From assembly GCA_038062615.1 (NCBI GenBank), contig JBBTWV010000002.1:1-56491 (forward strand): 56,491 nt of DNA. The letters run 5' to 3'. This DNA is from Patescibacteria group bacterium. Its GTDB lineage: Bacteria > Patescibacteriota > Gracilibacteria > UBA1369 > UM-FILTER-53-11. This document shows, piece by piece, positions 14,123-51,132 of the stretch. Positions within the stretch are counted from its first letter, which is position 1. Every line of letters starts with the position of its first letter. The position numbers were made by a program, and so were the translations under genes. The notes under the pieces are model-generated. The model worked only from the letters and a program-made list of their open reading frames with translations. It did no database searches and was not told where the DNA came from.

Positions 14123-15091
14123 ATGGTAAATCTTTCGGTAGAATTTTGCGGAGTGAAATTCAAAAATCCGCTTGTGCTGGCCTCGGGCATTTTGGGAATC
14201 ACCGCTTCTTCTTGGCGCAATGCCGTAAAACATGGCGCCGGCGGCGTAACCACCAAGTCGCTCTGGCTGCATGAGCACAAAGGGCATCGCAATCCGGTGA
14301 TTATTGCCAACGAACATTACATGCTCAATGCGGTGGGTGTTCCTGATGCCGGTACGCAAAAAGCGCAGGAAGAAATCGGGAAATTTTTGAAGTGGGGCGA
14401 GGCACCCATCATCGCCAATATTATTGCCGGGAGTGTTCATGATTTTGGTGAAACCGCAGAAGAAATTGCCCAAATTAAGCCAGATATTTTGGAGGTCAAT
14501 ATTTCTTGCCCCAATGTGGAAGATGAGTTTGGCAAGCCGTTTGCCTGTGTTGCGGGGGATGCGGCGCGTGTAACAAAAGAAGTCAAAAATCGCTTAGCCA
14601 AAATGAAGCTGAAAATTCCGGTGAGCGTAAAATTGTCACCAAATGTGGAAGACATTACCGAGATTGCCAAAGCGGTTGCGGATGCTGGTGCTGATGCACT
14701 TACGGTGATGAATTCTGCTGGGCCGGGCATGGCCATCAATATTGAAACCCGCATGCCGATTTTAGCCAATAAAGTTGGCGGCCTAACAGGGCCGGCCTTA
14801 AAACCGCTTGCGGTAAAGCTTATTTACGATATTCGCCGCGCCGGAATTAAAATTCCTATTATTGGAACCGGCGGCATACTTACCGGCCGTGATGCCATTG
14901 AGATGATGATGGTTGGAGCCACGCTTATTGGTATCGGCACCGGAGTTCATTATCGCGGCGTCGAAATCTTCAAAAAAATAACCGACGAGATGGAGGAGTG
15001 GTGCCAAGAAAATAAAGTTAAAAAAATTACCGATATTATCGGTTCGGTTCATGTCATTGCGAGCGCCGCAAAGCGGAGCGAAGCAATCTAG
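14123..15091 (+). CDS. pyrD: Dihydroorotate dehydrogenase, class 1B catalytic subunit
   Basis: NISCPN, GGLTGPALKP and IIGTGGI motifs. The last ~12 codons (VIASAAKRSEAI) and the stop codon lie inside repeat A1. Confidence 0.9.
   Translation: MVNLSVEFCGVKFKNPLVLASGILGITASSWRNAVKHGAGGVTTKSLWLHEHKGHRNPVIIANEHYMLNAVGVPDAGTQKAQEEIGKFLKWGEAPIIANIIAGSVHDFGETAEEIAQIKPDILEVNISCPNVEDEFGKPFACVAGDAARVTKEVKNRLAKMKLKIPVSVKLSPNVEDITEIAKAVADAGADALTVMNSAGPGMAINIETRMPILANKVGGLTGPALKPLAVKLIYDIRRAGIKIPIIGTGGILTGRDAIEMMMVGATLIGIGTGVHYRGVEIFKKITDEMEEWCQENKVKKITDIIGSVHVIASAAKRSEAI
15053..15091 (+). repeat. Family A repeat, left-half copy (A1)
   Basis: GTCATTGCGAGCG..AGCGAAGCAATCTAG matches the left arms of A2 and A3, with an extra CCGC-AAA-GCGG hairpin. 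Confidence 0.65.
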
Positions 15092-15112
15092 CTCGTCTCT
15101 AACACTTTTAGC

Positions 15113-15913
15113 TTGGATAACTTTCCTCACGCCGTTCGGATCAAAAAAATCATTAAAGAAACGCCGTTGGTGCGTTCCTACATTTTTGACTACCCGGTGC
15201 GCGCTCTGCCCGGCCAGTTTATTAATATTTGGATTCCGGGAGTTGATGAAAAACCGATGAGCGTAGCTTTTGATGATGGGAAAAGTTATACCCTGGCAAT
15301 TGCCGGAATTGGACATGGAACCCAGGAATTAGAAAAAAAGAAGGTGGGGGACTACATCGGCATTCGCGGTCCGTATGGAACGCACTTCACATGGAAGAAA
15401 AAAGAGCGCATCGCCATGCTAGCAGGAGGATACGGTGCTGGACCTCTCTATTTTGCCGCGGAGTTAGCGGTGGAAGAGGGGTGCCATGTGGATTTTTTCT
15501 TAGGAGCCCGCAGTAAAACGCATCTGCTTTTTGCCGACCGAATTCGCAAACTTAAAAACACGCGTTTTTTGCCATCTACTGATGATGGCTCCGCCGGTTT
15601 TAAAGGCTTCAACGTCGCCTGTTGGACGGAAAAAATGGAGGAAGGCGCCAAGTATGATCGCATTCTTACCTGCGGCCCGGAGCTTATGATGAAGAGCGTT
15701 TCGGATATCTCCTGGGGGAAAAAAATCCCCGCGCAAGTTTCTATTGAGCGCTATATGAAGTGCGGGTTTGGCATTTGCGGTAACTGCTGCGTGGATGATT
15801 TAGGTATTACCACCTGCCAAAACGGCACGGTGATGGATAATGCCGTGGCGCGTAAAATTAAGGAGTTTGGAGTTTATCATCGAGATTCCCTAGGCCGCAA
15901 ACATCAATTTTAG
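15113..15913 (+). CDS. pyrK: Dihydroorotate dehydrogenase electron-transfer subunit
   Basis: Ferredoxin-reductase-like fold and a C-terminal 2Fe-2S cysteine cluster, CGFGICGNCC. Apparent TTG start. Immediately follows pyrD. Confidence 0.85.
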   Translation: MDNFPHAVRIKKIIKETPLVRSYIFDYPVRALPGQFINIWIPGVDEKPMSVAFDDGKSYTLAIAGIGHGTQELEKKKVGDYIGIRGPYGTHFTWKKKERIAMLAGGYGAGPLYFAAELAVEEGCHVDFFLGARSKTHLLFADRIRKLKNTRFLPSTDDGSAGFKGFNVACWTEKMEEGAKYDRILTCGPELMMKSVSDISWGKKIPAQVSIERYMKCGFGICGNCCVDDLGITTCQNGTVMDNAVARKIKEFGVYHRDSLGRKHQF

Positions 15914-15921
15914 CAGGTACT

Positions 15922-15947
15922 TAGAGGGCTTAACGCATGCCCTTTAG
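15922..15947 (+). terminator. Possible intrinsic terminator after pyrK
   Basis: TAGAGGGC-9 nt-GCCCTTTA stem (one G-U pair) followed by a T-rich stretch. It sits between convergent genes. Confidence 0.35.
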
Positions 15948-15955
15948 AGAATTTT

Positions 15956-17773
15956 CTATTTTCTCTTTCTACGCTTTTTTTCCAAAGCAAGCTGGTCTTC
16001 TTGTTCTCTTCTGCGAATTTCTGCCCACGCTTCACTCGCTATTCCCTCTATTGGGAGCCTATCACCACGATTAATATGGGAATTACTAGAAAATCGGTAA
16101 CTCACCCTATTAAGTTCTTCCATAGTGAGATGGGTTTCAATAATATGGGTTTCCCAAAGATGATAGGCAACCGGAAAACTTCGCGTCCTCAAGAGTACAC
16201 CTAAAAGTGTCTTGTCAGCCTCCTCATCTGAATTTGCACAAGCTCTGATTCTGGCAACCGTGTTATCTATAAAAACGTTGTCGTGGTAACCGTCTGCCAA
16301 TTCTGCGGCAAGGTCGCGAGTTTTTTGCCATCCTCGTTCTTGGGCTTCTCGTCTCTGCACATCTTTGTGAGCTTCAAGAGATTTTGCGCGTCTTTGCAAA
16401 ATACTCGTAACATCTAATCCTCTTGCTCCACATGCTGTAACTGCTTCTTGCACAACACGTTCACTCGCCGCATACCGAGCGATTTCCGGCAACAATTCAT
16501 TCGTCAAAACGGCAGGGTAAATATTTTGAAGCACCATCCAAACCACTTCGCATGTTTCATCATCATCGCAATCTGCAAAAAAACTTTTCAGCATATGCAA
16601 ATTATCGGCACCTTGGCCAGTACACTCTATAATGGTGCCTAAAAGGTCGCACGCGGTAGCAGGGTGAGTAGCACGGATGAATTGTTTTACCAAGAAAGCA
16701 AGATGTATACCGGCATGTTCTGCGGTAGCATTTGCATACAATCTTCTGTTGATTGCCATATCATAATCAAAGGTCGGTTCGGTTCTTATTCTTTCGGCAC
16801 GGGCAAGGATAAAACTTCGGTAAACTGGAGATGCATCTCTCAAAACTCTTGTAACTTCCCTTTTACCGGTTCTCACTAATGCAGCACTTTTACTCACTGC
16901 CGCAACAGCTCTGTCGCCGGTATCATCCGCAACTGTCATAATATGAGGCGTTTCATCTGGAGCATCTCCCGGAGGATCCAGTCCCTGTTCGTAAAAACTT
17001 TCTTGGTAAGCAACCTCATCTTGCAAAGCTAAAAGATCTTTAAGCCGTGGAAAGTCCTGCATGTCACTGCCAACTTTTCTCAAAATTTGTTCGCCAACCT
17101 CTCTTTGTTCCTCATCAGGAAGTTGGAATTTATATTGTACTTTAATGGTGCCAAGTCTAGGACTCTCACCCAAATTGAGCGTTTCTTCAATCTCTTTCAA
17201 TAAATCAACAAATGCTTGAATCAGACGCTCTTCAAAATCTCTTCCTGGGGCTTTAGATTCCATGAGCATTCCCATGCTTATAACTGCCTGCGGAGGAACA
17301 GAAGTGTCACGTTTTACTGTTACCAGTTCTACAAATTTTGCTGGTATGGCGGTGGCTAAATCGCCTGCTTGGCGCTCACCGATGATATTGATAAGTTTTT
17401 CCAGAGTTATAATATCGTGTGTGGACAATACTTTCCCCCCTCTTTTGTCCCATTCAACCGTTTCGGTTTTTTCCATGGGTAAATGGAGTATCTCGCTTAT
17501 AGCGTAGTGTCCAGCAAGTTCACTGAACACAACACCATAATCAATTATGAGTAAGTCTATTTTTCGCATGGTTTCTCTATATGCCTCTAAAGAAGTCGGA
17601 TGTTTTTTTTGCTGTGCAACGAGTACTTGTATCTTGGTGGTAATTTCAACAATATTGCGGAGTGCCAGCATTAAGTACTCCAGCAGCAGTTGGAGCCGGT
17701 CGGGTATCTGATTTTCAAAAATGACTAAACGAGTCGCTCCAGATGGCGGGCTTTTATCGAGGCTTTTTCCCAT
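15956..17773 (-). CDS. Orphan 605-aa protein, cassette copy 1 (paralog of 21073-22731); function unknown
   Basis: Long ORF with a leaderless-type promoter. It shares conserved blocks with its paralog (TVEWDK, QAFVDLLK, YQESF, LHMLK.FF, ETCE.VW, FIDNTVARIRAC). I recognise no known catalytic motif. Confidence 0.75.
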   Translation of the reverse strand: MGKSLDKSPPSGATRLVIFENQIPDRLQLLLEYLMLALRNIVEITTKIQVLVAQQKKHPTSLEAYRETMRKIDLLIIDYGVVFSELAGHYAISEILHLPMEKTETVEWDKRGGKVLSTHDIITLEKLINIIGERQAGDLATAIPAKFVELVTVKRDTSVPPQAVISMGMLMESKAPGRDFEERLIQAFVDLLKEIEETLNLGESPRLGTIKVQYKFQLPDEEQREVGEQILRKVGSDMQDFPRLKDLLALQDEVAYQESFYEQGLDPPGDAPDETPHIMTVADDTGDRAVAAVSKSAALVRTGKREVTRVLRDASPVYRSFILARAERIRTEPTFDYDMAINRRLYANATAEHAGIHLAFLVKQFIRATHPATACDLLGTIIECTGQGADNLHMLKSFFADCDDDETCEVVWMVLQNIYPAVLTNELLPEIARYAASERVVQEAVTACGARGLDVTSILQRRAKSLEAHKDVQRREAQERGWQKTRDLAAELADGYHDNVFIDNTVARIRACANSDEEADKTLLGVLLRTRSFPVAYHLWETHIIETHLTMEELNRVSYRFSSNSHINRGDRLPIEGIASEAWAEIRRREQEDQLALEKKRRKRK

Positions 17774-17917
17774 AGGGTGTATTAAACACTAAATTGGCTA
17801 ATTAGTCAACTGGTCGTTTAACCTGTTAAATCTCGTCAAAATAGATCACCTGTGCAGAATTTATTGACGCTCAAACGCATAAGGGAGTAACATAAGGGTG
17901 TAATATTATTACACCCT
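17774..17917. promoter_or_regulatory. Divergent promoter/operator region of cassette copy 1
   Basis: Minus strand: TTGACT (17809-17804), 17 nt, TTTAAT (17786-17781), 7 nt, ATG. AGGG(T/A)GTAA-like motif at 17774-17783, 17882-17891 and 17895-17904, and inverted at 17908-17917. The last two form a 10-bp perfect palindrome that abuts the RHH ATG. Confidence 0.55.
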
Positions 17918-18253
17918 ATGAAGACCCCTTACCGTAAAAAAGTAAAATCAAAATACGCTATTAAGCTGAAGCATATTCCCGTTCTGCCTCCGCTTGGGTC
18001 GGGGTTGTTGTTAGGTAAGAAAGGGCCGCGCAAAAAAGTAAATTTCATGGTGGATCTCAATATTTTAGAAGGCATGAAAATTTTTGTGCCTTTTGGAGAT
18101 AGAAGCGACTTTGTGAATGATGCGGTGGCTTATGCGCTCAAAAAGGCTGCTCAGCGAGAAGCCATGGAATTTATGGATAAAGTTCGGAAAGAAGGGAAGT
18201 TACAGATGACCGACAAGGAGATTAAAGAAGCGATTAATTATGGCCGAAAATAA
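17918..18253 (+). CDS. Ribbon-helix-helix (CopG/VapB-like) antitoxin, copy 1
   Basis: RHH signature KKVNFMVDLNILEGM...GDRSDFVNDAVAYAL. Overlaps the downstream PIN gene by 14 nt. Confidence 0.8.
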   Translation: MKTPYRKKVKSKYAIKLKHIPVLPPLGSGLLLGKKGPRKKVNFMVDLNILEGMKIFVPFGDRSDFVNDAVAYALKKAAQREAMEFMDKVRKEGKLQMTDKEIKEAINYGRK

Positions 18254-18680
18254 ATCTCTCTTCGTCGTAGATGCCTCGGTTCTTTTGAAGTGGTATCTCA
18301 AAGAAGAAAATGATCAAGAACCCGCTTTGCAGCTGCAAACAGACTACCACTACGATAAGATTTCTCTCGCGATTCCGCACTATGCTTGGTCGGAGGTATT
18401 GAATACATTGGGAAGAAAAAAATCCTTTGATGAAGTACTTGCCTATTTTTCGCGTTATTTAGCCTTTGAAATACAGGAATATTCCATCACGCTTGAAATT
18501 GCAGCCGTGGCCATTGAACTTATGGAAAAGTTCCCTAATATAACCTTTTACGATGCCGGTTATCATGCTTTGGCGCTCCAAGAAGGAGGTACTTTTGTAA
18601 CCGCTGATGAAAAATATTTCCAAAAAACAAAAAAGCATGGCGGCATCATGCTCTTGAAAGACTACGGCAAGAAACGCTAG
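18240..18680 (+). CDS. vapC: PIN-domain (VapC-like) toxin, copy 1
   Basis: LFVVDASVLLKW, FYDAGYHALA and TADEKY supply the acidic PIN residues. 146 aa, translationally coupled to the RHH gene. Confidence 0.85.
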   Translation: MAENKSLFVVDASVLLKWYLKEENDQEPALQLQTDYHYDKISLAIPHYAWSEVLNTLGRKKSFDEVLAYFSRYLAFEIQEYSITLEIAAVAIELMEKFPNITFYDAGYHALALQEGGTFVTADEKYFQKTKKHGGIMLLKDYGKKR

Positions 18681-18700
18681 ACTGCCGCAGATGGGTAAGG

Positions 18701-18841
18701 AGTTCTCTAACAGGCCAAGCCGCAGCTCGAGCCAAGGCGAAGATGCCGAATCAAGAAGATTCGGCTTGGCTAAGCAATTAACTCGCCCAAATGATGCTAA
18801 GGCATCAAGCAGAGCAAGCGGCGATGAGGGCGAAACTTCGG
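18701..18841 (+). repeat. Family B nested-hairpin repeat (B1), inserted into a duplicated pyrE 5' fragment
   Basis: TAACAGGCCAAGCCG...CGGCTTGGCTAAGCAATTAACTCGCCC...GAGGGCGAAAC matches the reverse complement of B2-B4. It is absent from the otherwise identical site at 24035/24036. Confidence 0.7.
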
Positions 18842-18874
18842 CTCAAGAAATCGCCGTGTCTCCTTTGGAAAATT

Positions 18875-20317
18875 ATGAATCCTATTTCTCTCGCCGATTT
18901 TAAAACGGCCCATGAGCCAAGAGCTTACGTTAATTCGAGCATTCGCTTTCATCATGAATTCTCGCAGCGCGAACGTCTTAAAGCCGCGCAAAAAGCCGGC
19001 TGGAATGTTTTTCAATTTCCTTCAGAAATGCTGAAAGGAGGTGATCTGCTCTCCGATTCGGGAACAACGACCATGACGGTGGAACAAGTTGCCGCGATGT
19101 TTCTTGGCGATGAAGCTTACGGAAGCAATTACGGCTATTTCCAGCTTCTTGAAACTTTTGAAGAAGTATTCGGAATTCCTTCCCAACAAACTGAAGTTTT
19201 TTTCTTCCATCAAGGCCGGGCGGCCGAACATGCTCTCTTTTCACAAATTGGAAAATTTGGCGAGCACCTCATTATTCCCAGCAACGGTCATTTTGATACC
19301 ACCCGTGCCAACATAGAAAATAATCGCATTGCGGCAAAAGATTGTTTTTCGCCACAACTTCATTCAAAGCAAACGGCACCTTTTAAAGGAAATATGGATT
19401 TGGCGGTTTTAGAGCGGATTCTGCAGGAAAATTCCCAAAATATTCCTCTTGTTTATGTCACTATCACCAACAACAGCGGCGGCGGGCAGCCGGTTTCGCT
19501 GGCCAATATAAAGGCTGTAAGAAAACTTTGCGACCACTATGCTAAGCCGTTATTTTTGGATGCCTGCCGTTTTGCCGAAAACTCTTGGTTTATTAAAGCT
19601 CGCGAAAAAGAATACGCCGGCAGAACCGTCCGAAATATTGTAAAAGAAATTTTCGCCCTCTGCGACGGATTTACCATCTCTCTCAAAAAGGACGGCTTGG
19701 CCAACATGGGAGGTGCGCTTGTCATCAAAAAAAAGAGTCCGCTTGTAGGTGAGCATCCGCGCCTTTTAAATGATATTCGGGATCATCAAATTCTCACCGA
19801 AGGTCATCCCACCTACGGCGGCCTTTCCGGCCGTGACATTATGACGCTTTGTGTGGGGCTTAAAACGGCCGTTACCGAGCAGTATCTCAAAAGCCGCATC
19901 GGTTTGGTGCATGAATTCGGACGCATGCTTAAAAAGGCAAAAGTTCCCGTACTGGAACCTTTTGGCGGACATGCCATATATTTAGATATGGACAAATTTT
20001 TTGTTAAAACCAAGCATCAGCGTGCGGATTTTGGCGGTATTGCTTTCACCGGTTTGTTGCTCCTCAAGGGCGTTCGTCTTTGCGAACTCGGCGCTTTTGC
20101 TTTTGGGGAAAATCATCCTCATAATTTTGTCCGCGCGGCGGTTCCCCGCAATAAATACGAACTGGAAGATCTTGCCTATGTTGCCGATTGCATCCAGGGG
20201 CTTTATGAAAAACGCCGCGAAATTCCGCGGGCCGTTCCGGTATATGGCCGCGACTTAACACTTCGCCATTTTAAGGCGAGGTTTAAGCTGGAGGCTTTTT
20301 CCTCATTAGTTAGCTGA
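18875..20317 (+). CDS. Beta-eliminating lyase (tryptophanase / tyrosine phenol-lyase family), PLP-dependent
   Basis: DLLSDSGTTTM, GDEAYGS, HQGRAAEH, and a PLP-lysine context SLKKDGLANMGGAL resembling TnaA. The tracked ORF start (18791) runs through repeat B1, so the ATG at 18875 (MNPISLADF) is preferred. Confidence 0.85.
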   Translation: MNPISLADFKTAHEPRAYVNSSIRFHHEFSQRERLKAAQKAGWNVFQFPSEMLKGGDLLSDSGTTTMTVEQVAAMFLGDEAYGSNYGYFQLLETFEEVFGIPSQQTEVFFFHQGRAAEHALFSQIGKFGEHLIIPSNGHFDTTRANIENNRIAAKDCFSPQLHSKQTAPFKGNMDLAVLERILQENSQNIPLVYVTITNNSGGGQPVSLANIKAVRKLCDHYAKPLFLDACRFAENSWFIKAREKEYAGRTVRNIVKEIFALCDGFTISLKKDGLANMGGALVIKKKSPLVGEHPRLLNDIRDHQILTEGHPTYGGLSGRDIMTLCVGLKTAVTEQYLKSRIGLVHEFGRMLKKAKVPVLEPFGGHAIYLDMDKFFVKTKHQRADFGGIAFTGLLLLKGVRLCELGAFAFGENHPHNFVRAAVPRNKYELEDLAYVADCIQGLYEKRREIPRAVPVYGRDLTLRHFKARFKLEAFSSLVS

Positions 20318-20414
20318 TTTCTCCCTGTTAGGCTCTTAGGGAATCTCTGAAAAACATCTTGCAAGCTGCGATTATTGTATTTTGGCCGCAAACACCTATT
20401 CGCAAAATAAAAGT

Positions 20415-20443
20415 TTGCACTAACGCTGCTAGTGCGCTATAAT
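20415..20443 (+). promoter_or_regulatory. Promoter TTGCAC-17 nt-TATAAT with inverted repeat GCACTA/TAGTGC in the spacer; ATG 6 nt after the -10
   Basis: TTGCAC at 20415-20420, TATAAT at 20438-20443, ATG at 20450. Confidence 0.55.
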
Positions 20444-20449
20444 ACGCCT

Positions 20450-20677
20450 ATGTCGAATCTTACCATCCGTATCAATGAAAATTTAAAGAAGAAGGCTGCA
20501 AAAGAAGCAGGCAAGCTTGGCATATCCCTTACGTTTGTGGTGATTAATGCCCTTAACCATTTTATTGAATCACCTAAAATTACCATTGGCGAACCGGAAG
20601 ATGTTATGGTGACCCCTGATCTTCAAAAGAGCATGGATACCATTGGCAGGCTGATATCCAAAAAGCAGCGTAAATGA
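20450..20677 (+). CDS. RelB/DinJ-type ribbon-helix-helix antitoxin
   Basis: MSNLTIRINENLKKKAAKEAGKLGISLTFVVINAL is typical of an RHH N-terminus. Its stop overlaps the next ATG (ATGA). The tracked GTG start at 20432 lies inside the promoter. Confidence 0.7.
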   Translation: MSNLTIRINENLKKKAAKEAGKLGISLTFVVINALNHFIESPKITIGEPEDVMVTPDLQKSMDTIGRLISKKQRK

Positions 20678-21054
20678 GACTCATCCTTACTGATTCAATC
20701 AAAAAGAGTGAGCTCTCGCCGCTGGAGAAGGTTTTTCCGTTGAAAGTCATTCAAATTGCTGCACGGAAAGCGCTTTTAGGGCTGGGGGAATCCATAAAAA
20801 ATCCCATGAAAGTTCCTTTTACTTGCCTCAAAAAACTTTATCTGACAGGAACAAGCGGCGCAGGGCGCGTCATCTTTTTACTGCTTACCAATGAACAGCA
20901 ATCTGTCTTGGTAATGCTCAGGCACAAAAATGACAAAAAAATCGGGGCAAACATGGCGATACAAAATCCGCGATTTAAGGGACTTTTGGAACGGAATTTA
21001 AACCTTATTGCCAAGGATCTTCAAAACGGTAAATTTGAAGCCAGCGAAATTTGA
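20674..21054 (+). CDS. Putative RelE/ParE-superfamily toxin
   Basis: 126 aa, coupled to the antitoxin. GAGRVIFLLLTNEQQSVLVMLRHKND resembles the RelE/ParE beta-strand plus hR(K) pattern. The assignment is tentative. Confidence 0.55.
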   Translation: MRLILTDSIKKSELSPLEKVFPLKVIQIAARKALLGLGESIKNPMKVPFTCLKKLYLTGTSGAGRVIFLLLTNEQQSVLVMLRHKNDKKIGANMAIQNPRFKGLLERNLNLIAKDLQNGKFEASEI

Positions 21055-21072
21055 TTATCTCGGCCTTCTTTT

Positions 21073-25188: not shown

Positions 25189-26154
25189 ATGCATGGGGAA
25201 ATGAGTATAATGCAACCAATGCCAAAACAATCACTCAATTTTGCAGACCGGCTGGTAGCCGCAATCAAACAAAAAGGTACGCCTGTTTGCGTGGGTTTGG
25301 ATCCACGGCTGGAAAATATTCCATCTTTTTTGAAGACGAAACATATTCATGAAAAAGGCAGAAGTTTTGTGGCGGCGGCGGATACATTTTTAGAATTTAA
25401 TAAAGGTATCATTGATGCGATTCATGACTTGGTCCCAGCGGTAAAGCCGCAGTTTGCTTTTTATGAGCAGTATGGATTTTCGGGCGTTTGGGCTTTTGAA
25501 GAGACGTGTAAGTATGCGCAAGAAAAAGGACTCATGGTTATTGCGGACGCAAAGTGCAATGATATTGGGACGACCGCCGAGGCTTATGCCAATACTTTTT
25601 TGGGTGAGACGGATGTGTTTGGTGAAAAAGTTTCCGTGATGGACTGTGACGCCGTTACGGTGAATCCTTATTTGGGATACGATGGCGTGAAGCCGTTTAT
25701 GGAGGTTTGTAAAAAACGTGGGAAAGGAATTTTTGTGCTCGTGAAAACTTCCAACCCGTCATCCGGAGATTTGCAAGATCGCATGACGGAGGACAAGTTG
25801 CGCAACTATGAAGTGACGGCACACTTGCTGGAAGCTTGGGGGGCTGATGAAATTGGGAAGTGCGGGTATAGCTCTATTGGCGCGGTGGTTGGAGCCACGT
25901 ATCCAGATGAAGCGGCGCGACTGCGAAAAGTAATGCCGCATGTTTATTTTTTAGTCCCGGGTTATGGGGCACAAGGTGCCAAGGCTAAAGATGTAAAAGC
26001 CTGCTTTAATGAAGATGGACTTGGAGCGCTTATTAACAACGGTCGCGATATTATTTTTGCTTGGGAAAAATCAGAGACTTCCGAGAAGGATTATGCGGCG
26101 GCAGCGCGTGTGGCGGTTCTAGAAATGAAAAAGAAGTTGGCGGAATTGTTTTAA
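25189..26154 (+). CDS. pyrF: Orotidine-5'-phosphate decarboxylase, type 2
   Basis: VCVGLDP and VIADAKCNDIG (the DxKxxD motif), with a ~320-aa long-form length. The exact start among several early Met codons is uncertain. Confidence 0.85.
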   Translation: MHGEMSIMQPMPKQSLNFADRLVAAIKQKGTPVCVGLDPRLENIPSFLKTKHIHEKGRSFVAAADTFLEFNKGIIDAIHDLVPAVKPQFAFYEQYGFSGVWAFEETCKYAQEKGLMVIADAKCNDIGTTAEAYANTFLGETDVFGEKVSVMDCDAVTVNPYLGYDGVKPFMEVCKKRGKGIFVLVKTSNPSSGDLQDRMTEDKLRNYEVTAHLLEAWGADEIGKCGYSSIGAVVGATYPDEAARLRKVMPHVYFLVPGYGAQGAKAKDVKACFNEDGLGALINNGRDIIFAWEKSETSEKDYAAAARVAVLEMKKKLAELF

Positions 26155-26954
26155 AGGGAAGAGAAATGCGCGAGCTTTTCCCACTCTTCAATACTCAGTG
26201 TTTCCGCGCGGCGTGTTAGTTCAATTCCGGCTTTTTTTAAAAGTTCTACGTCAAAAACGCCGCGAAGCATTTTTCGTTTGTGTGAGAATCCGCGGTGTAT
26301 ATTTTCGAAATAAGTTTTTTGCGCGACACTCGTCGTAGCTTGGTCGTGCGTCGCCGCCGGAAATTCAATTTTCAAAATAGCGGAATCCACTTTAGGCACC
26401 GGTTTAAAATTCCTGCGGGAAACAATCTTCATAATTTTAGGCACGCCAAATGTCTGTACATGAAGGGCTAAGACGTTCATGTGCGGCGGCGACGCGCATA
26501 TTTTTTCGGCAACTTCCTTTTGCACCAAAAGAACGGCACGCTGCGGAAGATTATTACTTTTACGAATAAAATGATCCAGTAGCGGAGAAGTAATGGAATA
26601 GGGAATATTGGCCACCCAGTAATAGGGGACTTGCGGTGGAGGCACATCCAGCGCATCGGCATGAATCAATTCCAAATTCCGATGCGTGTCGCGGCAAGCG
26701 GCCGCGGCTAAATTCTTCTGCATGCCAAATTCGGCTTGGAGGTGCGCAAAAAGATGGTTATCCTTTTCAATCGCTTTCACTTTCACGTTGCGCGCAAGAA
26801 GAGCCGAGGTAAGAATCCCAAATCCTGGCCCCACCTCCACCACCAATGCTCCCGCAGGAAGATCGGCGTACTGCAAAATTTTCTCCACGATCATGGGTTG
26901 GATAAGAAAATTTTGACCGAAAGATTTTTTAGGATGAAATTCGCGCAGTTGCAT
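26151..26954 (-). CDS. rsmA: 16S rRNA (adenine1518/1519-N6)-dimethyltransferase
   Basis: KKSFGQNFL, VEVGPGFG (SAM site) and NIPYSITSP. Confidence 0.9.
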   Translation of the reverse strand: MQLREFHPKKSFGQNFLIQPMIVEKILQYADLPAGALVVEVGPGFGILTSALLARNVKVKAIEKDNHLFAHLQAEFGMQKNLAAAACRDTHRNLELIHADALDVPPPQVPYYWVANIPYSITSPLLDHFIRKSNNLPQRAVLLVQKEVAEKICASPPHMNVLALHVQTFGVPKIMKIVSRRNFKPVPKVDSAILKIEFPAATHDQATTSVAQKTYFENIHRGFSHKRKMLRGVFDVELLKKAGIELTRRAETLSIEEWEKLAHFSSL

Positions 26955-42958: not shown

Positions 42959-42972
42959 ATGGTGAAATAAAA

Positions 42973-43197: not shown

Positions 43198-43211
43198 AAA
43201 TTAAGGAGAGA

Positions 43212-43754: not shown

Positions 43755-43767
43755 AAGGGATTTAAAT

Positions 43768-43825
43768 GGTCGCGCCCTTCGGGCGCATTACTTGCTTAGC
43801 CTCGCCTCGACGGCTCGGCCTGTTA
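43768..43825 (-). repeat. Family B repeat (B3) filling the rplX-rplE spacer
   Basis: TGGTCGCGCCCTTCGGGCGCATTACTTGCTTAGCCTCGCCTCGACGGCTCGGCCTGTTA. The terminal TTA is the complement of the rplX stop codon. Confidence 0.7.
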
Positions 43826-44529: not shown

Positions 44530-44537
44530 GAGTAAAG

Positions 44538-44774
44538 TTAGGCTTTAGGAAGGGGAGGAACCACCGTCCAACGCTTGAGTTTGGAGAGTGGGCGCGTCTC
44601 ATAAATGGTTACTTTATCGCCGACTTGATACTTGTTCTCTGGATCGTGCGCATAGAACTTTTTAGATGAACTTACGAGTTTTTTATACTTTGGATGAGCT
44701 CTTTTGGAAGTAACTTTAACCACAAGGGTCTTTTCCATTTTGTTGCTCATGACAGTTCCAACTTTAGTTCTCAT
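44538..44774 (-). CDS. rpsQ: 30S ribosomal protein S17
   Basis: [16 protein letters not shown]...HPKYKKLV...[26 protein letters not shown]. Confidence 0.9.
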
Positions 44775-44792
44775 AAGAATTGAGGATAATTA

Positions 44793-45023
44793 CTATTTCG
44801 TTACGGCACTTTTAGCATTCTCTTTGACTTGTTCCATAGAGAGCCAGCGCTTCATGGTTTTAATACGAGCAATGTATTTGCGCAAGCTTTTTAACTTCGA
44901 CGTCTCTTTGCTCTGGCGTCCTGCAACCGAGAGTCGCAGCTTGAGCAAGTTGATCCGGCCTTTGCGGATTTCTTCAACCAGTTCTTTCTCTGTCATCTTT
45001 TTGAGTTCGTCGGGGGTAAGCAT
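44793..45023 (-). CDS. rpmC: 50S ribosomal protein L29
   Basis: LKKMTEKELVEEIRKGRINLLKLRL, in the position between rplP and rpsQ. Confidence 0.85.
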   Translation of the reverse strand: MLTPDELKKMTEKELVEEIRKGRINLLKLRLSVAGRQSKETSKLKSLRKYIARIKTMKRWLSMEQVKENAKSAVTK

Positions 45024-45027
45024 GGGG

Positions 45028-45088
45028 ATTGTTGCGCCCTGCGGGCGCGTTATTGGCTTAGCCGTCGCCTCGACGGCTAAGCCTGTTA
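45028..45088 (-). repeat. Family B repeat (B4) filling the rplP-rpmC spacer
   Basis: ATTGTTGCGCCCTGCGGGCGCGTTATTGGCTTAGCCGTCGCCTCGACGGCTAAGCCTGTTA, with a perfect 10-bp stem TTAGCCGTCG/CGACGGCTAA. The terminal TTA is the complement of the rplP stop. Confidence 0.7.
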
Positions 45089-45499
45089 GTGTGAGATAAC
45101 GAAGCGAGTTCTTACGGGGAGTTTGCTTGCAGCCAGGTACATGGCTCTCTTGGCGAGATCTTGGGTTACGCCATCCATTTCCATAATAATGTGGCCTTTT
45201 CGTACCTGTGAGACATAGAATTCGACGGTTCCCTTACCGGCACCCATGGGTACTTCAGCCGCTTTGCGAGTGATGGGCTGGTGAGGAAAAATTCGAATCC
45301 AGATTTTTCCTCCGCGTTTGAGGCAGTGCGCAACAGCTTTACGTGCGGCTTCCAGCTGACGAGAATTGATCTCGCCGCCACTTTGAGCTTTGAGTCCAAA
45401 AGATCCAAAGCTGAGTTGATGGCCGGAAGTTGCGACACCATACTGGCTGTTTCGCATCCGATGCCACTTCCTATATTTCGTTCGAGCAGGCTGTAACAT
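45086..45499 (-). CDS. rplP: 50S ribosomal protein L16
   Basis: MLQPARTKYRKWHRMR...GGKIWIRIFPHQPITRKAAEVPMGAGKG. Confidence 0.9.
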   Translation of the reverse strand: MLQPARTKYRKWHRMRNSQYGVATSGHQLSFGSFGLKAQSGGEINSRQLEAARKAVAHCLKRGGKIWIRIFPHQPITRKAAEVPMGAGKGTVEFYVSQVRKGHIIMEMDGVTQDLAKRAMYLAASKLPVRTRFVISH

Positions 45500-45507
45500 A
45501 GAAAATC

Positions 45508-46137
45508 TTAATGAAACACTTCACCGCGATAAACCCACACCTTTACTCCGATGGTTCCATAGGTGGTTATGGCCCGGTAGTAACCGTAATCAATATCAGC
45601 ACGGAAAGTTTGAAGTGGAATTTTTCCGGCAGCAAAGAACTCACTGCGAGCAATTTCAACACCATTGAGACGCCCAGCGCAGTTGATCTTTACGCCTTTG
45701 GCGCCCGATTCCATAGAACGTTCAATAGAAATCTTGCAGGCGCGTCGGTAAGGGATGCGCTTTTCGATCTGCTTGCCCACCAGCTCTGCCAAAATGTAGG
45801 CATCTTGGTACGGCTTCTTAATCTCTTTAATGTTGATGATGAATTTGTCATGGAACTTGGCTTCAAGATCCTTGCGAAGATTATCAATGGCGGCTCCTTG
45901 GCTGCCAATGGCAAGACCTGGCCTTGAACTCATAATATTCACCGTAACTTGATTGGCATTGCGGAGAATCTCAATATGAGAGACGCCAGCTTCGGAAAGT
46001 TTTTTCTCAACGAACTTTCGAAGTTGAATATCCTGATGCAGCGTCTTTGCAAAGTTATGCTTGTTGGCATACCACTTTGAGTCCCAGGTGCGGTTGATAC
46101 CGAGACGGAGTCCAATTGGATGTACTTTTTGACCCAT
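45508..46137 (-). CDS. rpsC: 30S ribosomal protein S3
   Basis: MGQKVHPIGLRLGINRTWDSKWYA, plus a KH domain. Confidence 0.9.
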   Translation of the reverse strand: MGQKVHPIGLRLGINRTWDSKWYANKHNFAKTLHQDIQLRKFVEKKLSEAGVSHIEILRNANQVTVNIMSSRPGLAIGSQGAAIDNLRKDLEAKFHDKFIINIKEIKKPYQDAYILAELVGKQIEKRIPYRRACKISIERSMESGAKGVKINCAGRLNGVEIARSEFFAAGKIPLQTFRADIDYGYYRAITTYGTIGVKVWVYRGEVFH

Positions 46138-46151
46138 GGGGAGAGAAATAA

Positions 46152-46553
46152 TTAAGCTTGAATTTTCTGAGTAACTTTTACAGGCTTTTCTTTAATAACT
46201 TTTTTCACTTTTGCATCAGGAGCGGCTGTACGCACGGCCACTTCTACCGTAATGTGGCTTGTTCTTTTGAGGATAGGATGAGCACGTCCTTTTGATACGG
46301 GACGATGCCGTTTAAGAGTGGATCCTTCATTCACAATGATCTTGCTGATGTAGAGATCTTTGCGCTGCTGTTTGAAGTTTTGCTCGGCGTTGGCAACGGC
46401 AGAGCGAATCGTCTCCATAAGAGGCTTGGCACTTTTCTTGGGAGTAAAGCGCAGAAAGTTAATGGCTGTTTCTGCGGATTTGCCGCGAACAAGATCAGCG
46501 ACGAGGTTCACTTTTTTTGGAGAGATGCGGAGATATCTTCGGATAGCTTTCAT
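46152..46553 (-). CDS. rplV: 50S ribosomal protein L22
   Basis: MKAIRRYLRISPKKVNLVADLVRGKSAETAINFLRFTPKK. The tracked TTG start at 46589 reads through a repeat-like GC-rich stretch. Confidence 0.85.
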   Translation of the reverse strand: MKAIRRYLRISPKKVNLVADLVRGKSAETAINFLRFTPKKSAKPLMETIRSAVANAEQNFKQQRKDLYISKIIVNEGSTLKRHRPVSKGRAHPILKRTSHITVEVAVRTAAPDAKVKKVIKEKPVKVTQKIQA

Positions 46554-46652
46554 GAGGCGAGGGAGCGAAGCGACCGAGCCTTTTACCAATTGAGGGTTGT
46601 CGCCGTTAGCTTAGTGAGTGATATAAACTTAGGAGCACAGATTAAAGATTTT

Positions 46653-47030
46653 CTATTTCGCTGGTGCTTTAGTAGGGGCAGCGGCACCGGCAGCAGGTGC
46701 ACCGGTTGCTCCAGGAGCAGGAGCGGCGCCGCCTTCAGCGGCAGAACCAGTACCAACTTCGCGAGCCAAACGGCCACCGTGAGCTCTAAATTTACGAGTA
46801 GGGGAGAATTCACCAAGACGATGTCCCACCATGTTTTCACTTACGAACACCGGGATGTGCTGCTTGCCATTGTGGACTCCAAAGGTGTGGCCCACAAATT
46901 CTGGAGGAATCTGGCAAGAACGTGCCCAAGTCTTGATAATCTTTTTTTGTCCGATGGCATTGAGTGCCGCAACTTTCTTCACAAGTTTGGCATCTACGTA
47001 AGGACCTTTTTTTGAACTGCGATGTGACAT
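46653..47030 (-). CDS. rpsS: 30S ribosomal protein S19 with ~35-aa Gly/Ala/Pro-rich C-terminal extension
   Basis: [14 protein letters not shown]...[34 protein letters not shown], then [33 protein letters not shown]. Confidence 0.9.
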
Positions 47031-47031
47031 A

Positions 47032-47886
47032 TCACTCAGTTTTAATTAATTGCTTGCCCTTGCGGGTGCGGATGATAAAGCGGTTTGTCCATTTTTTGCG
47101 CGTGCGAGTTTTGTGACCCAACGCCGGGGCACCCCATGGAGTTTTAGGATGAATGAGACCGATCGTAGTACTTCCTTCACCACCACCGTGTGGATGATCA
47201 ATCGGGTTCATGGCTTTACCTTGTACTTCCGGACGCAGACCTTTCCAGCGTGCTCGGCCGGCTTTTCCAAGCGAGACCAAGTTGTGGTCAGGATTACTGA
47301 CGCGACCAATGGAAGCGTAGCAGGTTTTATGCACAAATCGAAGTTCCTTAGAAGGCATTTCGACCTGGGCATAACGACCTTCGAGCGAGATAAGCCGTGC
47401 TGCTGAACCAGCAGATCGGATAACTTGCCCGCCCTTACCGGAGGTCATTTCCAGATTATGAATCTCAAAACCAACAGGAATATTTTTAAGTTGAATGCGA
47501 TTGCCAACCTTTATTTTGGCCTTCGCCTTGGTCATAATGGTACCGCCGACCGTAATGCCGTGTGGCGCTAAGTGATAACGTTTTTCACCATCGGCGTAGT
47601 GCACCAACATAATGAAGCAAGTGCGGAAAGGATCATATTCAATGGCGGCAACTTTGCCTGGCACATCCAATTTTTCCGTCTGTTTAAAATCAATCAAGCG
47701 ATACAAAACCTTGTTTCCTCCGCCGCGATGGCGCACCGTGAGGCGACCCTGATTATTACGACCAGCGTGTTTTTGAATGCGTACGCGCAGACGTTTCTCA
47801 GGACGATGTTTCGTGAGTTCTTCGTACGTAAGGCTAACGCGGAAGCGTTGGCCGGGAGTCGTTGGTTTAAATGATTTGACTGGCAT
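47032..47886 (-). CDS. rplB: 50S ribosomal protein L2
   Basis: [17 protein letters not shown]...[16 protein letters not shown]. Confidence 0.9.
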
Positions 47887-47894
47887 AGAGATGG

Positions 47895-47967
47895 GTGTCC
47901 TTGCGAGCGTTAGCGAAGCAATCTAGTGTAGGTTGCTTCGTCCCATGGATGGGACTCGCAATGACAG
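47895..47967 (-). repeat. Family A nested-hairpin repeat (A2) filling the rplW-rplB spacer
   Basis: GTGTCCTTGCGAGCGTTAGCGAAGCAATCTAG...TTGCTTCGTC...CTCGCAATGACAG. The outer arms GTCCTTGCGAG/CTCGCAATGAC and inner arms GCGAAGCAA/TTGCTTCG are complementary. Confidence 0.7.
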
Positions 47968-48267
47968 TTATGACTTAACTTTAGGCTTCATGGCATCAAT
48001 TACCTTGAGACCTTTGGTGGTAATAATAACTTTTTTTAAAGCTGGTCTCTTTGTTACTGGCGTCCGAGCCTTTCCAATCTTAGTCTTTTTAGGCGTTTTG
48101 ATGACGTTCACTTTTGCCGCATCAACTCCGTAAATTTCTTTGAAAGCGGCGCGAATATCAACTTTGGTGGCATAAGGCCGAACAAAGAACTGAAACTTTC
48201 CCTTCTTCTCTGCGGAAGTTGCTTTTTCGGTAATGACTGGACGTAAAAAGAAATCGAAGGTTTTCAT
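47968..48267 (-). CDS. rplW: 50S ribosomal protein L23
   Basis: LRPVITEKATSAEKKGKFQFFVRPYATKVDIRAAFKEIYGV. Confidence 0.9.
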   Translation of the reverse strand: MKTFDFFLRPVITEKATSAEKKGKFQFFVRPYATKVDIRAAFKEIYGVDAAKVNVIKTPKKTKIGKARTPVTKRPALKKVIITTKGLKVIDAMKPKVKS

Positions 48268-48275
48268 GTGAGAAA

Positions 48276-48905
48276 TTATGAGCTAAGGAAGACTTCTTCT
48301 AATTTAGCGATTGAGGCTTTTAAAAAGACAATATCTCTATACTTCAGCAGGTCCACAACATTGAGGTAATTTACCAGGATAGATTTAACTGAAGGAATGT
48401 TGCGGCTGGAACGGTAGAGAGTTTCATCTTTACCTGGGAGTACAAAGAGAACCGTCTTTTTAAATGGAAGTTTTTTGAGCATCTCATTGAACTTCTTGGT
48501 CTTGGGAGTTTCTGAATCGAATGCTTCTAATGCGGAAACGTTGCCGTCTTTGAGCTTTGAAGCGAGGGCAGAGAACAAAGCACCACGGCGTTCTTTTTTA
48601 GAAGCGAAGAGCTCAAAATTTCTGGCGTTACGAGGACCAAAAGCCACACCACCTCCACGGAAGTGCGGGTTGGTAATGGAACCCTGGCGGGCATTACCAG
48701 TGTGCTTTTGTTTGTAAGGTTTTTTACCACCACCACGCACCTCACCTTTGGTCATGGTGTGAGCAATAGGGTGGCGCTTGTTGGATTGCTGCAACACGAG
48801 CATGCGATGCATGAGAGGCTTATTGATAGCGTGCCCAAAAATTTTTTCTGGAACCATTACTTCGCCTTTAGGGCTGCCGTCTTGTGAGTACAGGGGGATT
48901 TTCAT
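48276..48905 (-). CDS. rplD: 50S ribosomal protein L4
   Basis: TKGEVRGGGKKPYKQKHTGNARQGSITNPHFRGGGVAFGP. Confidence 0.9.
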   Translation of the reverse strand: MKIPLYSQDGSPKGEVMVPEKIFGHAINKPLMHRMLVLQQSNKRHPIAHTMTKGEVRGGGKKPYKQKHTGNARQGSITNPHFRGGGVAFGPRNARNFELFASKKERRGALFSALASKLKDGNVSALEAFDSETPKTKKFNEMLKKLPFKKTVLFVLPGKDETLYRSSRNIPSVKSILVNYLNVVDLLKYRDIVFLKASIAKLEEVFLSS

Positions 48906-48907
48906 AA

Positions 48908-49486
48908 TTAACTGTTAACCATTACGAGTCCTCCGCGCGGCCCGGGAACCGGACCCTTGATGAGGAGAATATTTCTTTCAGGGAGAACTTGGATGAGTGG
49001 AATATTTCGAGTGGTGAGACTCTCAAAGCCCATATGGCCGGCCATCTTTTTACCTTTGTGGATGCGGCCTGGGTTTGAACGGGCACCGATGGAGCCTGGT
49101 TCGCGGTTGAAGTGGCTTCCGTGGCTGCCTGGCCCAGAATGGAAGTGGTGGCGCTTCATGAAGCCAGCAAATCCTTTTCCTTTGGAAACGGCTTTTACCG
49201 TTACCAACTTAATTTCTTTGAAGGCCTCCACCGTAACTTGGTCACCGACTTTGTAATCCTCCGGCTTTTCAACATGGAACTCGCGCAGGAACCGGTATTT
49301 TCTGGTTTTGCGCGGTTTTTTCAATGCGTTAAACCCGAGGACTATCGCCGGATATCCATCTTTGTCTACCGTTTTGATCTGAGTAATGACCGAAGGAGAA
49401 CAACTCAGAACGGTGACAGGGATCACACGACCATCGTCTTGGAATATGCGAGTCATGCCCATTTTTGTGCCCAGAATACCTGGCAT
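48908..49486 (-). CDS. rplC: 50S ribosomal protein L3
   Basis: MPGILGTKMGMTRIFQDDGRVIPVTV matches the canonical L3 N-terminus. The tracked ORF extends to 49552 with 22 non-conserved residues. Confidence 0.85.
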   Translation of the reverse strand: MPGILGTKMGMTRIFQDDGRVIPVTVLSCSPSVITQIKTVDKDGYPAIVLGFNALKKPRKTRKYRFLREFHVEKPEDYKVGDQVTVEAFKEIKLVTVKAVSKGKGFAGFMKRHHFHSGPGSHGSHFNREPGSIGARSNPGRIHKGKKMAGHMGFESLTTRNIPLIQVLPERNILLIKGPVPGPRGGLVMVNS

Positions 49487-49610
49487 ACAGGAGAGGTTAG
49501 GAACTACTTTGCGAAACTTTTGGACTTGCTGGGAGTTATCCCGTCTCGACATACGTCGGGACGCCTAGGTTTCAAGCTAACGTGCTGATTTTCTTATTAG
49601 GTGCTTGTAC

Positions 49611-49639
49611 AAGTTACAGATAACCAATTTCGATGTCAA
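49611..49639 (-). promoter_or_regulatory. Putative promoter for rplC and downstream genes: TTGACA (49639-49634), 17 nt, TAACTT (49616-49611)
   Basis: Read on the minus strand within the 49487-49697 spacer created by the opposite-strand gene. Confidence 0.4.
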
Positions 49640-49658
49640 TTTCAGGTTACAGAAGCAC

Positions 49659-49687
49659 TTGACATTATTACTTTAATATAATACAAT
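49659..49687 (+). promoter_or_regulatory. Promoter TTGACA (49659-49664), 17 nt, TACAAT (49682-49687), 10 nt before the ATG at 49698
   Basis: Near-consensus hexamers at ideal spacing directly upstream of the orphan ORF. Confidence 0.5.
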
Positions 49688-49697
49688 CTTCATCCTT

Positions 49698-50687
49698 ATG
49701 AATACTACACCCTCATCGGATAGAAGAAACATAGATCAACTTGTGACGGATTTAAGGAGAGAACCCCTTCAGCTTCCTCCTGCCAATGCCACAGATGTGC
49801 AAGAGCGCCGTTTGGCCATTCGTAACCTTATTTTGGAGGCAACTCGCAATACCCTTTTTCAATTGTGTGATAACCAAGGCAACGGGCTTGTATACGATAA
49901 CGCTTGGCCACCACTTGATGGTGTTTCAACGATAGTTGATGGCCATGACGTACACGATTTTATGGAAGCCTTTCGTCATCATCTTGACCCGCAAAGTCCG
50001 CATTTTGATAATCTTCTTGCCGACCCTGACGTTGGAATTACTCGCCTTATTTCAATTTTTACCAAAATGGCCGTGGAGGTGGCCAGCCGAGGAGGAAGTC
50101 CATCCGCAATCTTTAAATATTTTAGAAGATTAACTGAAGAAGATTTACCAGTTGATGTACTAAGTGTGGGAAGAGTTCCGGAAACAAAATATTATGGTCT
50201 CGAAGAATTGCCCTGGGATAAACCAGAAAGCAGATCTAAGCCATTTACTGCCAAAGGATTATTGCAAGAGAAGCTCGGTGGAGCTTTGGTGCGTTATTGG
50301 TCATTTATGAATGACTATTTCTTAGCGCAAACATTACAAGAACCGAGATTTGCAGAACAAGCTGAATATATAAATACATTTAAAAAAGCTTTTGGAGATT
50401 TGCTCAGTAAAGCTGGTATTACGTCTGACTGGATTATGTGTTGGTTCTTTACTATATCTCATGCACTGGAAACCCAGGTGACTTCTGCAATGACCACGGA
50501 GATGAGCTTGGCCCTTATGCAACTCGGACAGGAAACAGTGGCCATTCTGGGGGGAGGTGACCAAAATAAGCATGCACTCATTGGACAGGCAGTTCAAAAA
50601 TTTGCACAACAAACATTGCCGGCTTTAGTAAACCAAGCGCCGCAAGCAGGACCAGCTTTGCTTCCCATTCGACAAGCTGAGGAGTGA
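49698..50687 (+). CDS. Orphan 329-aa helical protein inserted on the opposite strand between rpsJ and rplC
   Basis: Long ORF with its own promoter. No recognisable domain, signal peptide or TM segment. Confidence 0.65.
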   Translation: MNTTPSSDRRNIDQLVTDLRREPLQLPPANATDVQERRLAIRNLILEATRNTLFQLCDNQGNGLVYDNAWPPLDGVSTIVDGHDVHDFMEAFRHHLDPQSPHFDNLLADPDVGITRLISIFTKMAVEVASRGGSPSAIFKYFRRLTEEDLPVDVLSVGRVPETKYYGLEELPWDKPESRSKPFTAKGLLQEKLGGALVRYWSFMNDYFLAQTLQEPRFAEQAEYINTFKKAFGDLLSKAGITSDWIMCWFFTISHALETQVTSAMTTEMSLALMQLGQETVAILGGGDQNKHALIGQAVQKFAQQTLPALVNQAPQAGPALLPIRQAEE

Positions 50688-50694
50688 CATTCCG

Positions 50695-50706
50695 CTCGCA
50701 ATGACA
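50695..50706 (-). repeat. Family A right-arm fragment (A4)
   Basis: CTCGCAATGACA is identical to the right arm of A2 and A3. It lies in the 22-nt gap between the orphan ORF stop and the rpsJ stop. Confidence 0.45.
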
Positions 50707-50709
50707 TCG

Positions 50710-51051
50710 CTATTTCTTCGTGGGTAACTCGCTGGAGATCATCTTAATTTCGACATCCACACCGGCTGGTAAACTCAGGTTGCTCAGAGATTCAATGGTC
50801 TTTGGCGTTGATTCCGTAATATCAATAAGGCGCTTGTGCTCACGCATCTCAAACTGCTCGCGGCTGTTTTTGTGAACAAACGTAGAGCGGTTTACCGTGA
50901 ATTTTTTGATGCGTGTTGGCAGGGGAATAGGACCGGCAATAATGGCTCCGCTTTTTTCTGCCGTATCAATGATGAGTTTTGTGGACTCATCAGCAACCTT
51001 ATGATCAAAAGCCTTGATCTTAATTCTGATTTTCTGTTGAGCTGTGGCCAT
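50710..51051 (-). CDS. rpsJ: 30S ribosomal protein S10
   Basis: [50 protein letters not shown]. Confidence 0.9.
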
Positions 51052-51060
51052 AGAAAGGAT

Positions 51061-51132
51061 TGTCCTTGCGAGCGTAGCGAAGCAATCTAGACTAGTTTGC
51101 TTCGTCGGCCTTTGGGCCTTCTCGCAATGACA
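51061..51132 (-). repeat. Family A nested-hairpin repeat (A3) filling the tuf-rpsJ spacer
   Basis: TGTCCTTGCGAGCGTAGCGAAGCAATCTAGACTAGTTTGCTTCGTCGGCCTTTGGGCCTTCTCGCAATGACA. It directly abuts the tuf stop codon (51133-51135). Confidence 0.7.

Follow-up and report, generated by a model that had tools for sequence, protein, structure and literature searches.

Why do hairpin-forming repeats stand between the stop codon of one gene and the start codon of the next at two places in a ribosomal protein operon, and why does a related sequence supply the end of pyrD on the same contig? The question is raised by a stretch of 56,491 nucleotides from a Patescibacteria group bacterium of the Gracilibacteria (assembly GCA_038062615.1, contig JBBTWV010000002.1, positions 1 to 56,491), which we call the window throughout. 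An earlier note on this DNA had described four copies of one repeat, here family A (A1 to A4), and had held the function of such sequences to be undefined. That view proved outdated: family A carries the tags of Ssn-related motifs (SRMs) and of CGTC-tagged repetitive extragenic palindromes (REPs), its copies flank an Ssn-type gene in the host and in other phyla, and nucleases of this type bind and cut such hairpins as single-stranded DNA (ssDNA) (Chenal et al. 2025, PMC11893778). We assign family A, with a probability of roughly 0.8, to the Ssn-related hairpin repeats within the CGTC/TGTC-tagged REP superfamily. The repeat kind itself is already known, having first been described in 2025, and family A is a further member or branch of it. 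The copies in the window look like tolerated insertions of a selfish or domesticated kind of repeat, and not like a new system.

Anatomy and census of the family A unit

The basic unit of family A is a half-unit of 24-50 nt that reads (T/C)GTCATTGCGAG, then a variable tip hairpin, then CGAAGCAATCTAG or (C)GAAGCAATCTAG. It is built of a 5' tag (C/T)GTC, a stem ATTGC/GCAAT, a G/A-rich internal loop GAG...CGAA, the tip and a 3' tail CTAG. The Watson-Crick stem measures 5 bp. The tip is variable in length (1-27 nt or more) and usually self-complementary, and tips fold better than shuffled tips both in the host genome (mean z = -1.9) and in 125 units of other genomes (mean z = -1.35). In 241 units from other phyla, GTC is preceded at position -1 by C in 59% and by T in 33% (92% C or T), which gives the CGTC/TGTC tag.

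Within the window, the arm CTCGCAATGAC was matched six times with at most one mismatch, against 1.06 matches expected. Across the host genome (1.38 Mb, 46% GC, 100 contigs, 95.5% complete) we found 47 occurrences of the exact 11-mer arm, against ~0.7 expected from sequence length, and at a threshold of three or fewer mismatches we counted 47 half-units. The suspicion in the earlier note that these sequences form a genuine repeat family, with more copies elsewhere in the genome, was thereby borne out. Sixteen pairs of half-units form inverted doublets, like A2 and A3, and the remainder are solos, like A1. In the doublets the heads point outward and the CTAG tails join, often as one shared CTAG; the two halves are usually unequal, with a short tip (cgtagc, caaagc) on one side and a long, self-pairing tip on the other.

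More than half of the units (27 of 47) are intergenic (p = 5e-19, on a crude gene call with 92.7% coding), mostly with 1-10 nt separating them from a stop or start codon. Units are also found inside open reading frames (ORFs) and in convergent and divergent spacers, in both orientations. The orientation of solos in co-directional contexts, with 7 in sense and 3 in antisense, carries no information. At one further site (C12:28810-29049) two inverted half-units stand 180 nt apart in a divergent spacer, and their inner flanks share ~40 more nucleotides in inverted orientation (ggaacctctgaaaaaca...ctttacaaattt); this pair may be the gene-less remnant of a larger cassette.

A small GIY-YIG gene bracketed by family A units

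Only one gene in the host genome is bracketed by family A units. It encodes an 87-residue, single-domain GIY-YIG protein (C32:25961-26221; PF01541 alone, 1.7e-12) and is placed in the atpA|atpG spacer between inverted half-units at 25882-25922 (+) and 26221-26257 (-), so that half-unit, gene and half-unit together span 376 bp. The contig that carries it, C32, holds 7 units where 1.0 would be expected. The genome contains three GIY-YIG matches, namely a 738-residue protein, which we take to be UvrC, a UPF0213-like protein and the 87-residue protein, and only the last is Ssn-like. It has 7465 homologs at E <= 1e-10; among the matches listed, these are 85-129 residues long and carry no more specific name than 'GIY-YIG nuclease family protein' or 'putative endonuclease'. 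Its nearest match in the PDB is a UPF0213 protein (E = 0.044). The UPF0213/YhbQ-type protein of the host, encoded at C59:4131-4445 (-), is a second small GIY-YIG protein and is without flanking family A units.

The association of motif and gene recurs in other genomes. In a species-representative collection, the exact pattern GTCATTGCGAG-N(0-30)-GAAGCAATCTAG was present at 120 or more loci; those listed come from Alpha- and Gammaproteobacteria, Bacteroidota, Chloroflexota, Verrucomicrobiota, Spirochaetota, Campylobacterota, Omnitrophota, Melainabacteria, Fibrobacter and several Patescibacteria groups. A homolog of the 87-residue protein is encoded within 7 of 120 listed, arbitrary motif loci, where a generous estimate gives ~1 or fewer (P ~6e-5). 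In six of the seven (L102, L097, L062, L011, L006 and L008) the gene has the motif on either side; the seventh locus is truncated by a contig end. We also surveyed 201 genomes of the host phylum, 0.4-2.1 Mb in size. The motif was present in 31 of them and a reversed control pattern in none. A strong Ssn homolog was found in 16 of the 20 motif-rich genomes (three or more copies), compared to 46 of the 181 others (Fisher p = 2.5e-6, odds ratio 11.7), and the motif directly abuts Ssn in at least seven of these genomes (G128, G146, G107, G094, G089, G138 and G062). The breadth of the motif across phyla also agrees with a remark in the earlier note that such strings surface as spurious peptides in metagenomic annotations. 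On the assignment made here, peptides of the kind VIASEAKQS, SLRAKRSNL, DCFASLAMT and LLRFARNDK, which pollute protein databases, all come from translation through a single Ssn-type hairpin repeat.

The best characterised relative is the Neisseria repeat NTS (NTS/dRS3), CGTCATTCCCGCGMAVGCGGGAATCYRG, with the tags CGTCATT...AATCYRG. The 94-residue, single-domain GIY-YIG protein SsnA binds NTS as ssDNA only and cuts it a few nucleotides upstream, and ssn genes typically have Ssn-related motifs on their flanks (PMC11893778). Family A shares the oriented tags, (C/T)GTCATT...AATCTAG, and all 47 units read (T)GTCATT...GCAATCTAG. Its core likewise forms a hairpin and its tens of copies are dispersed and mostly intergenic; a gene for a single-domain GIY-YIG protein of ~90 residues has the motif on both flanks, and the two are found together across genomes and phyla. 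The stem differs, being TTGC/GCAA followed by a GA-rich loop in family A and CCCGCG/CGCGGG in NTS. Family A, unlike NTS, often forms doublets around one shared central CTAG, and many family A copies lie in frame within genes, whereas only 2% of NTS copies are in genes.

A second comparison is with the CGTC-tagged REPs, which have an unpaired CGTC (or TGTC/CCTC) tag, a stem that starts with A-T and a short unpaired tail, and of which intragenic, in-frame cases are known, as they are for the Rickettsia RPEs (Di Nocera et al. 2013, PMC3733652). Family A resembles this group, including RPE-4 and RPE-6, in the CGTC/TGTC tag, the A-T-starting stem and the short unpaired tail, in the frequency of dimers in opposite orientation, in having no dedicated REP-associated tyrosine transposase (RAYT), and in its in-frame copies within replication and repair genes, which in family A are PcrA/UvrD and LigA. 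It belongs to none of the four families CGTC-1 to -4: these have stems of 8-9 bp, loops of 4-5 nt and a CCA-like tail, in contrast to the 5-bp stem, internal loop, variable tip and CTAG tail of family A, and they were described mainly in Alphaproteobacteria, whereas family A is found in a small-genome, Patescibacteria-type lineage. Family A has the tags, the flanked gene and the co-occurrence of an SRM. It falls outside the published SRM search string, and its stem and loop differ in size from those of the four described CGTC families. Literature searches with the literal motif strings returned unrelated primer matches only, and a search combining Patescibacteria, GIY-YIG and palindromic returned nothing specific.

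The short tagged hairpin, the inverted doublets and the intergenic enrichment are also reminiscent of the REP/REPIN-RAYT systems and bacterial interspersed mosaic elements (BIMEs) of Gammaproteobacteria, and in outline the likeness to REP/REPIN-RAYT systems extends to an enzyme gene that is present once, with its own repeats on its flanks, and presumably to recognition as ssDNA. Family A could then consist of classical REPs or REPINs moved by a RAYT (Y1 transposase), or of ordinary miniature inverted-repeat transposable elements (MITEs) of an insertion sequence. We consider this very improbable. The tag of those repeats is GTAG and that of family A is CGTC/TGTC; their enzyme is a Y1 (HUH) transposase, and the sole unit-bracketed gene of our host encodes a GIY-YIG nuclease; and a profile search for RAYT (Y1_Tnp, PF01797) in the 95.5%-complete genome gave no match, with the controls detected.

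Several observations weigh against the assignment to the Ssn-related repeats. The published SRM string, HGTCWYN(0-2)YYVSBRHN(0-5)WNVSBRGN(0-2)RNCYNB, matches none of the 47 units. It has two matches in the genome, neither of them in family A, and 3-13 matches in shuffled genomes. The string misses family A because the stem letters and the tip length differ, its loop being 0-5 nt compared to a tip of 1-27 nt or more. It was hand-built from 29 genomes as an operational tool (PMC11893778). If the assignment holds, the published pattern misses a very widespread branch, whose 23 conserved bases are common to many bacterial phyla. NCBIfam returned no model for the 87-residue protein. Among the motif-rich genomes of the host phylum that are without a strong Ssn homolog, two have no match and two have weak matches only. 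The units that flank Ssn are inverted in the host genome and direct in several others, and this non-uniform orientation makes a poor fit to a simple terminal-inverted-repeat transposon. A strand of a doublet also carries only one unit in the sense that Ssn could read, again unlike a simple transposon.

By analogy with the characterised Ssn/NTS pairs, Ssn would recognise a folded half-unit in ssDNA and nick it just upstream of the tag. The 87-residue protein would in the same way bind and cut the family A motif, and either Ssn or host ssDNA repair might spread the copies; for cleavage and spread by Ssn, we extrapolate from Neisseria, Wolbachia and related enzymes. Units without a gene would be dispersed, non-autonomous copies of a nuclease-associated element. 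In this compact genome, the copies have gathered in the few permissive sites, directly after stop codons, ~10 nt ahead of start codons, or in frame at tolerant positions of proteins. The insertions in the window leave the operon intact, with no U-tract introduced and the native short leader retained, and in pyrD the unit displaced the native stop and so added a 12-residue, repeat-encoded tail. The copies would be near-neutral for the host.

A bolder version of this proposal, which we hold to be possible but rather doubtful, is that half-unit, ssn gene and half-unit make up a minimal autonomous element. The 87-residue nuclease would mobilise both itself and the gene-less copies via ssDNA hairpins, with a preference for nucleotides adjacent to stop and start codons in highly expressed operons. 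If this were true, GIY-YIG nucleases would constitute a transposase-like class for prokaryotic hairpin repeats, and the conservation of a 23-nt signature from Patescibacteria to Proteobacteria and Bacteroidota would be accounted for.

The same pairing of repeats and nuclease could instead serve the host. In N. meningitidis, a role of SsnA and NTS in the restriction of ssDNA has been shown (PMC11893778), and a comparable system here would cut motif-bearing ssDNA that enters the cell and thereby modulate recombination at the flanked genes, such as rpsJ and those of the atp operon; the copies would then be retained for this use and would not be selfish. Copies do bracket genes and operons, with A3 and A4 around rpsJ and seven units in the atp operon, and the genome holds a homolog of the competence channel ComEC. 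We nevertheless regard a host-beneficial restriction system as unlikely. The repeats are patchy and lineage-specific, with the motif in no other sampled member of the order or class; the in-frame insertions in essential genes look like by-products of spreading; and local spread would lead one to expect clustering near the nuclease gene just as well. The match to ComEC, at C38:20469-21194 (PF03772), itself contains two in-frame stops within its alignment, a TGA and a TAA, so that the gene may be broken or the alignment may have been extended too far.

The window copies and their orthologous sites

All four copies in the window were found within 1-2 nt of where the earlier note had placed them. 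A1 (15053..15091, +) reads GTCATTGCGAG-cgccgcaaagcggagc-GAAGCAATCTAG. The unit is read in the frame of pyrD, where it encodes PyrD residues 311-322, VIASAAKRSEAI, and the stop codon is the TAG of its CTAG. The gene concerned, pyrD (14123..15091, +), encodes the catalytic subunit of a class 1B dihydroorotate dehydrogenase and takes its last 12 codons and its stop from A1; pyrK starts downstream at 15113. The note had regarded A1 as a left-half copy. Its location and its contribution to PyrD stand, and its status as a partial copy does not: because the basic unit is the half-unit and the 70-nt copies are inverted doublets, A1 is a complete, solo unit and not a fragment.

A2, A3 and A4 are hosted by the operon segment tuf-rpsJ-(orphan gene, opposite strand)-rplC-rplD-rplW-rplB (47032..52332, -). 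The ribosomal genes around A2 and A3 are on the minus strand, and the cores of both copies are placed on the opposite strand. A2, in the rplW|rplB spacer, is an inverted doublet with its core at 47897..47965, made of a short-tip half (47897-47926, +) and a long-tip half (47928-47965, -), the TGTC heads pointing outward and the CTAG tails joining at the centre. A3, in the tuf|rpsJ spacer, is an inverted doublet with its core at 51062..51131, again of a short-tip half (51062-51090, +) and a long-tip half (51092-51131, -). As read on the mRNA strand, A3 begins 1 nt past the tuf stop and A2 begins 2 nt past the rplW stop, and the distance from the end of the copy to the next ATG, of rpsJ and rplB respectively, is 10 nt in both. 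Full copies had indeed been claimed in these two spacers, directly after the stops and ending shortly ahead of the starts. The left halves are near-identical bar one indel and the right-half tips differ. Overall identity is ~75-80%, in keeping with the ~80% that had been judged by eye. The nested stems that had been proposed are also predicted for both copies, at -34.6 kcal/mol for A3 and -31.8 kcal/mol for A2 (z = -3.3 and -4.0), and none of 200 shuffled sequences equalled them.

A4 (50664..50706, -) consists of an exact 12-nt head box, TGTCATTGCGAG, at 50695-50706, as in the right-arm fragment noted before at the end of the orphan gene, and of a possible, degenerate tail box. The head lies 4 nt downstream of the rpsJ stop, and the possible tail box, GAAGCAAAGCTGG, 30 nt beyond the head, where it reaches into the final codons of the orphan gene (+ strand). 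A4 is a decayed or truncated half-unit. The orphan gene itself (49553-50687, 329 residues) is located between rpsJ and rplC, antiparallel to the S10 operon, and has its own near-consensus promoter, TTGACA-17-TACAAT, ~13 nt ahead of its ATG. A gap of 1.2 kb or more between rpsJ and rplC is common to relatives of the same family, and a homolog of the orphan gene, weak at 23% identity, was found only in G006.

We compared the orthologous sites in up to 30 relatives, the number scored varying by junction. None of the PyrD orthologs in 22 relatives has the VIASAAKRSEAI tail, and most end 0-5 residues from host residue 310. The earlier note had named two outcomes that would count against it, namely orthologs sharing this C-terminus and a genome free of further copies, and both checks came out in its favour. 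Removal of A1 in silico restores no native pyrD stop and the frame continues into pyrK, so that the original junction must have been remodelled and is not reconstructable. The family A element is absent from the tuf|rpsJ spacer in all 25 scorable relatives. The rplW|rplB spacer is 1-13 nt long in most relatives of the same family, compared to 81 nt in the host, and without A2 the host spacer would be an 11-nt, CT-rich leader similar to those of the relatives. The atpA|atpG spacer is 104 nt or shorter in 22 of 23 relatives, compared to 389 nt in the host. Because the spacers of relatives are short and free of the element and their PyrD orthologs are free of the tail, the copies in the window are lineage-specific insertions.

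One relative, G003, has other insertions in the same places. Its rplW|rplB spacer contains a solo family A half-unit with a second repeat type (GTCATCCTGAGC-type) nested in the tip, and its tuf|rpsJ spacer contains a hairpin repeat of a different kind. In its atpA|atpG spacer we found an Ssn-like gene distinct from that of the host (39% identity) and possibly decayed, together with hairpins that are also different, GTCATGGTGAGC... / GTCATGGTGAGCTTGTCGAACCATGAC and GTCATCCTGAAC...ATCTAG. These events point to the same permissive spacers having taken up insertions more than once, and not to inheritance. Occupied and unoccupied sites linked to Ssn, including two Ssn/SRM pairs inserted independently in the atpA|atpG spacer, thus form a compact set on which mobilisation of repeats by Ssn nucleases could be tested.

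The placement of A2 and A3 might also be explained by selection on RNA. The copies in the spacers would then be selected RNA elements of the ribosomal operon, with the repeat family merely their source, and their hairpins would set processing sites, stabilise the upstream cistrons in the manner of E. coli REPs, or tune the translation of rpsJ and rplB. The strength of the predicted folds fits this explanation, as do the exact placement between the stop codon and ~10 nt ahead of the next start and the confinement of the GTCCTTGCGAG variant to A2 and A3, at equal distance from the start codon; transcription is in any case unavoidable for copies that lie within the operon without a terminator-like U-tract. 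Even so, we judge it improbable. The junctions are empty in 25-28 relatives, with spacers that are often only 1-13 nt long, the unit also occurs within ORFs and in convergent and divergent spacers in both orientations, and across phyla the motif stands beside unrelated genes. A scan of the whole window with Rfam matched no family, and the AAGGA of the variant is not readable as a Shine-Dalgarno (SD) sequence in a genome where 7% of genes have any SD 4-mer. The operon-specific RNA structures that the earlier note had implied are therefore not upheld by the empty junctions and by the units in ORFs and other spacers. A selected RNA role is unlikely as the reason for the copies, and effects of the copies on mRNA folding are plausible.

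We also considered the arm variant of A2 and A3, which on the mRNA reads CTCGCAAGGAC and lies 11 nt ahead of the rplB and rpsJ ATG, as a ribosome-binding site, and rejected it. This reading fails because the genome barely uses SD sites: a 4-mer GGAG, GAGG or AGGA at -20 to -3 precedes 98 of 1326 crude gene calls. Other ribosomal-protein genes have short, CT-rich leaders without an SD sequence, and the relatives make do with rplW|rplB spacers of 1-13 nt. A simpler explanation for the variant shared by A2 and A3 is that they are sister copies.

In-frame copies and gene ends

Besides pyrD, five genes of the host carry family A copies in frame, encoding an RfbA-like protein, MnmA, PcrA/UvrD, LigA and FolP. 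The RfbA-like protein has the repeat-encoded C-terminal tail VIASKAKQSS, MnmA has a doublet near its C-terminus, and LigA and FolP have inserts. In PcrA/UvrD a doublet adds exactly 23 residues, a clean insertion when the protein is aligned to solved PcrA structures. Gene ends that lie beside units call for caution in annotation, both for tails such as those of PyrD and the RfbA-like protein and for false starts. A case of such a repeat-induced start mis-annotation is atpH (C32:23928-24344), where the ORF call starts within a half-unit (MSLRAKRSNLLMKITPRKY...; MSLRAKRSNL...) and the true start is probably the methionine of MKITPRKY.

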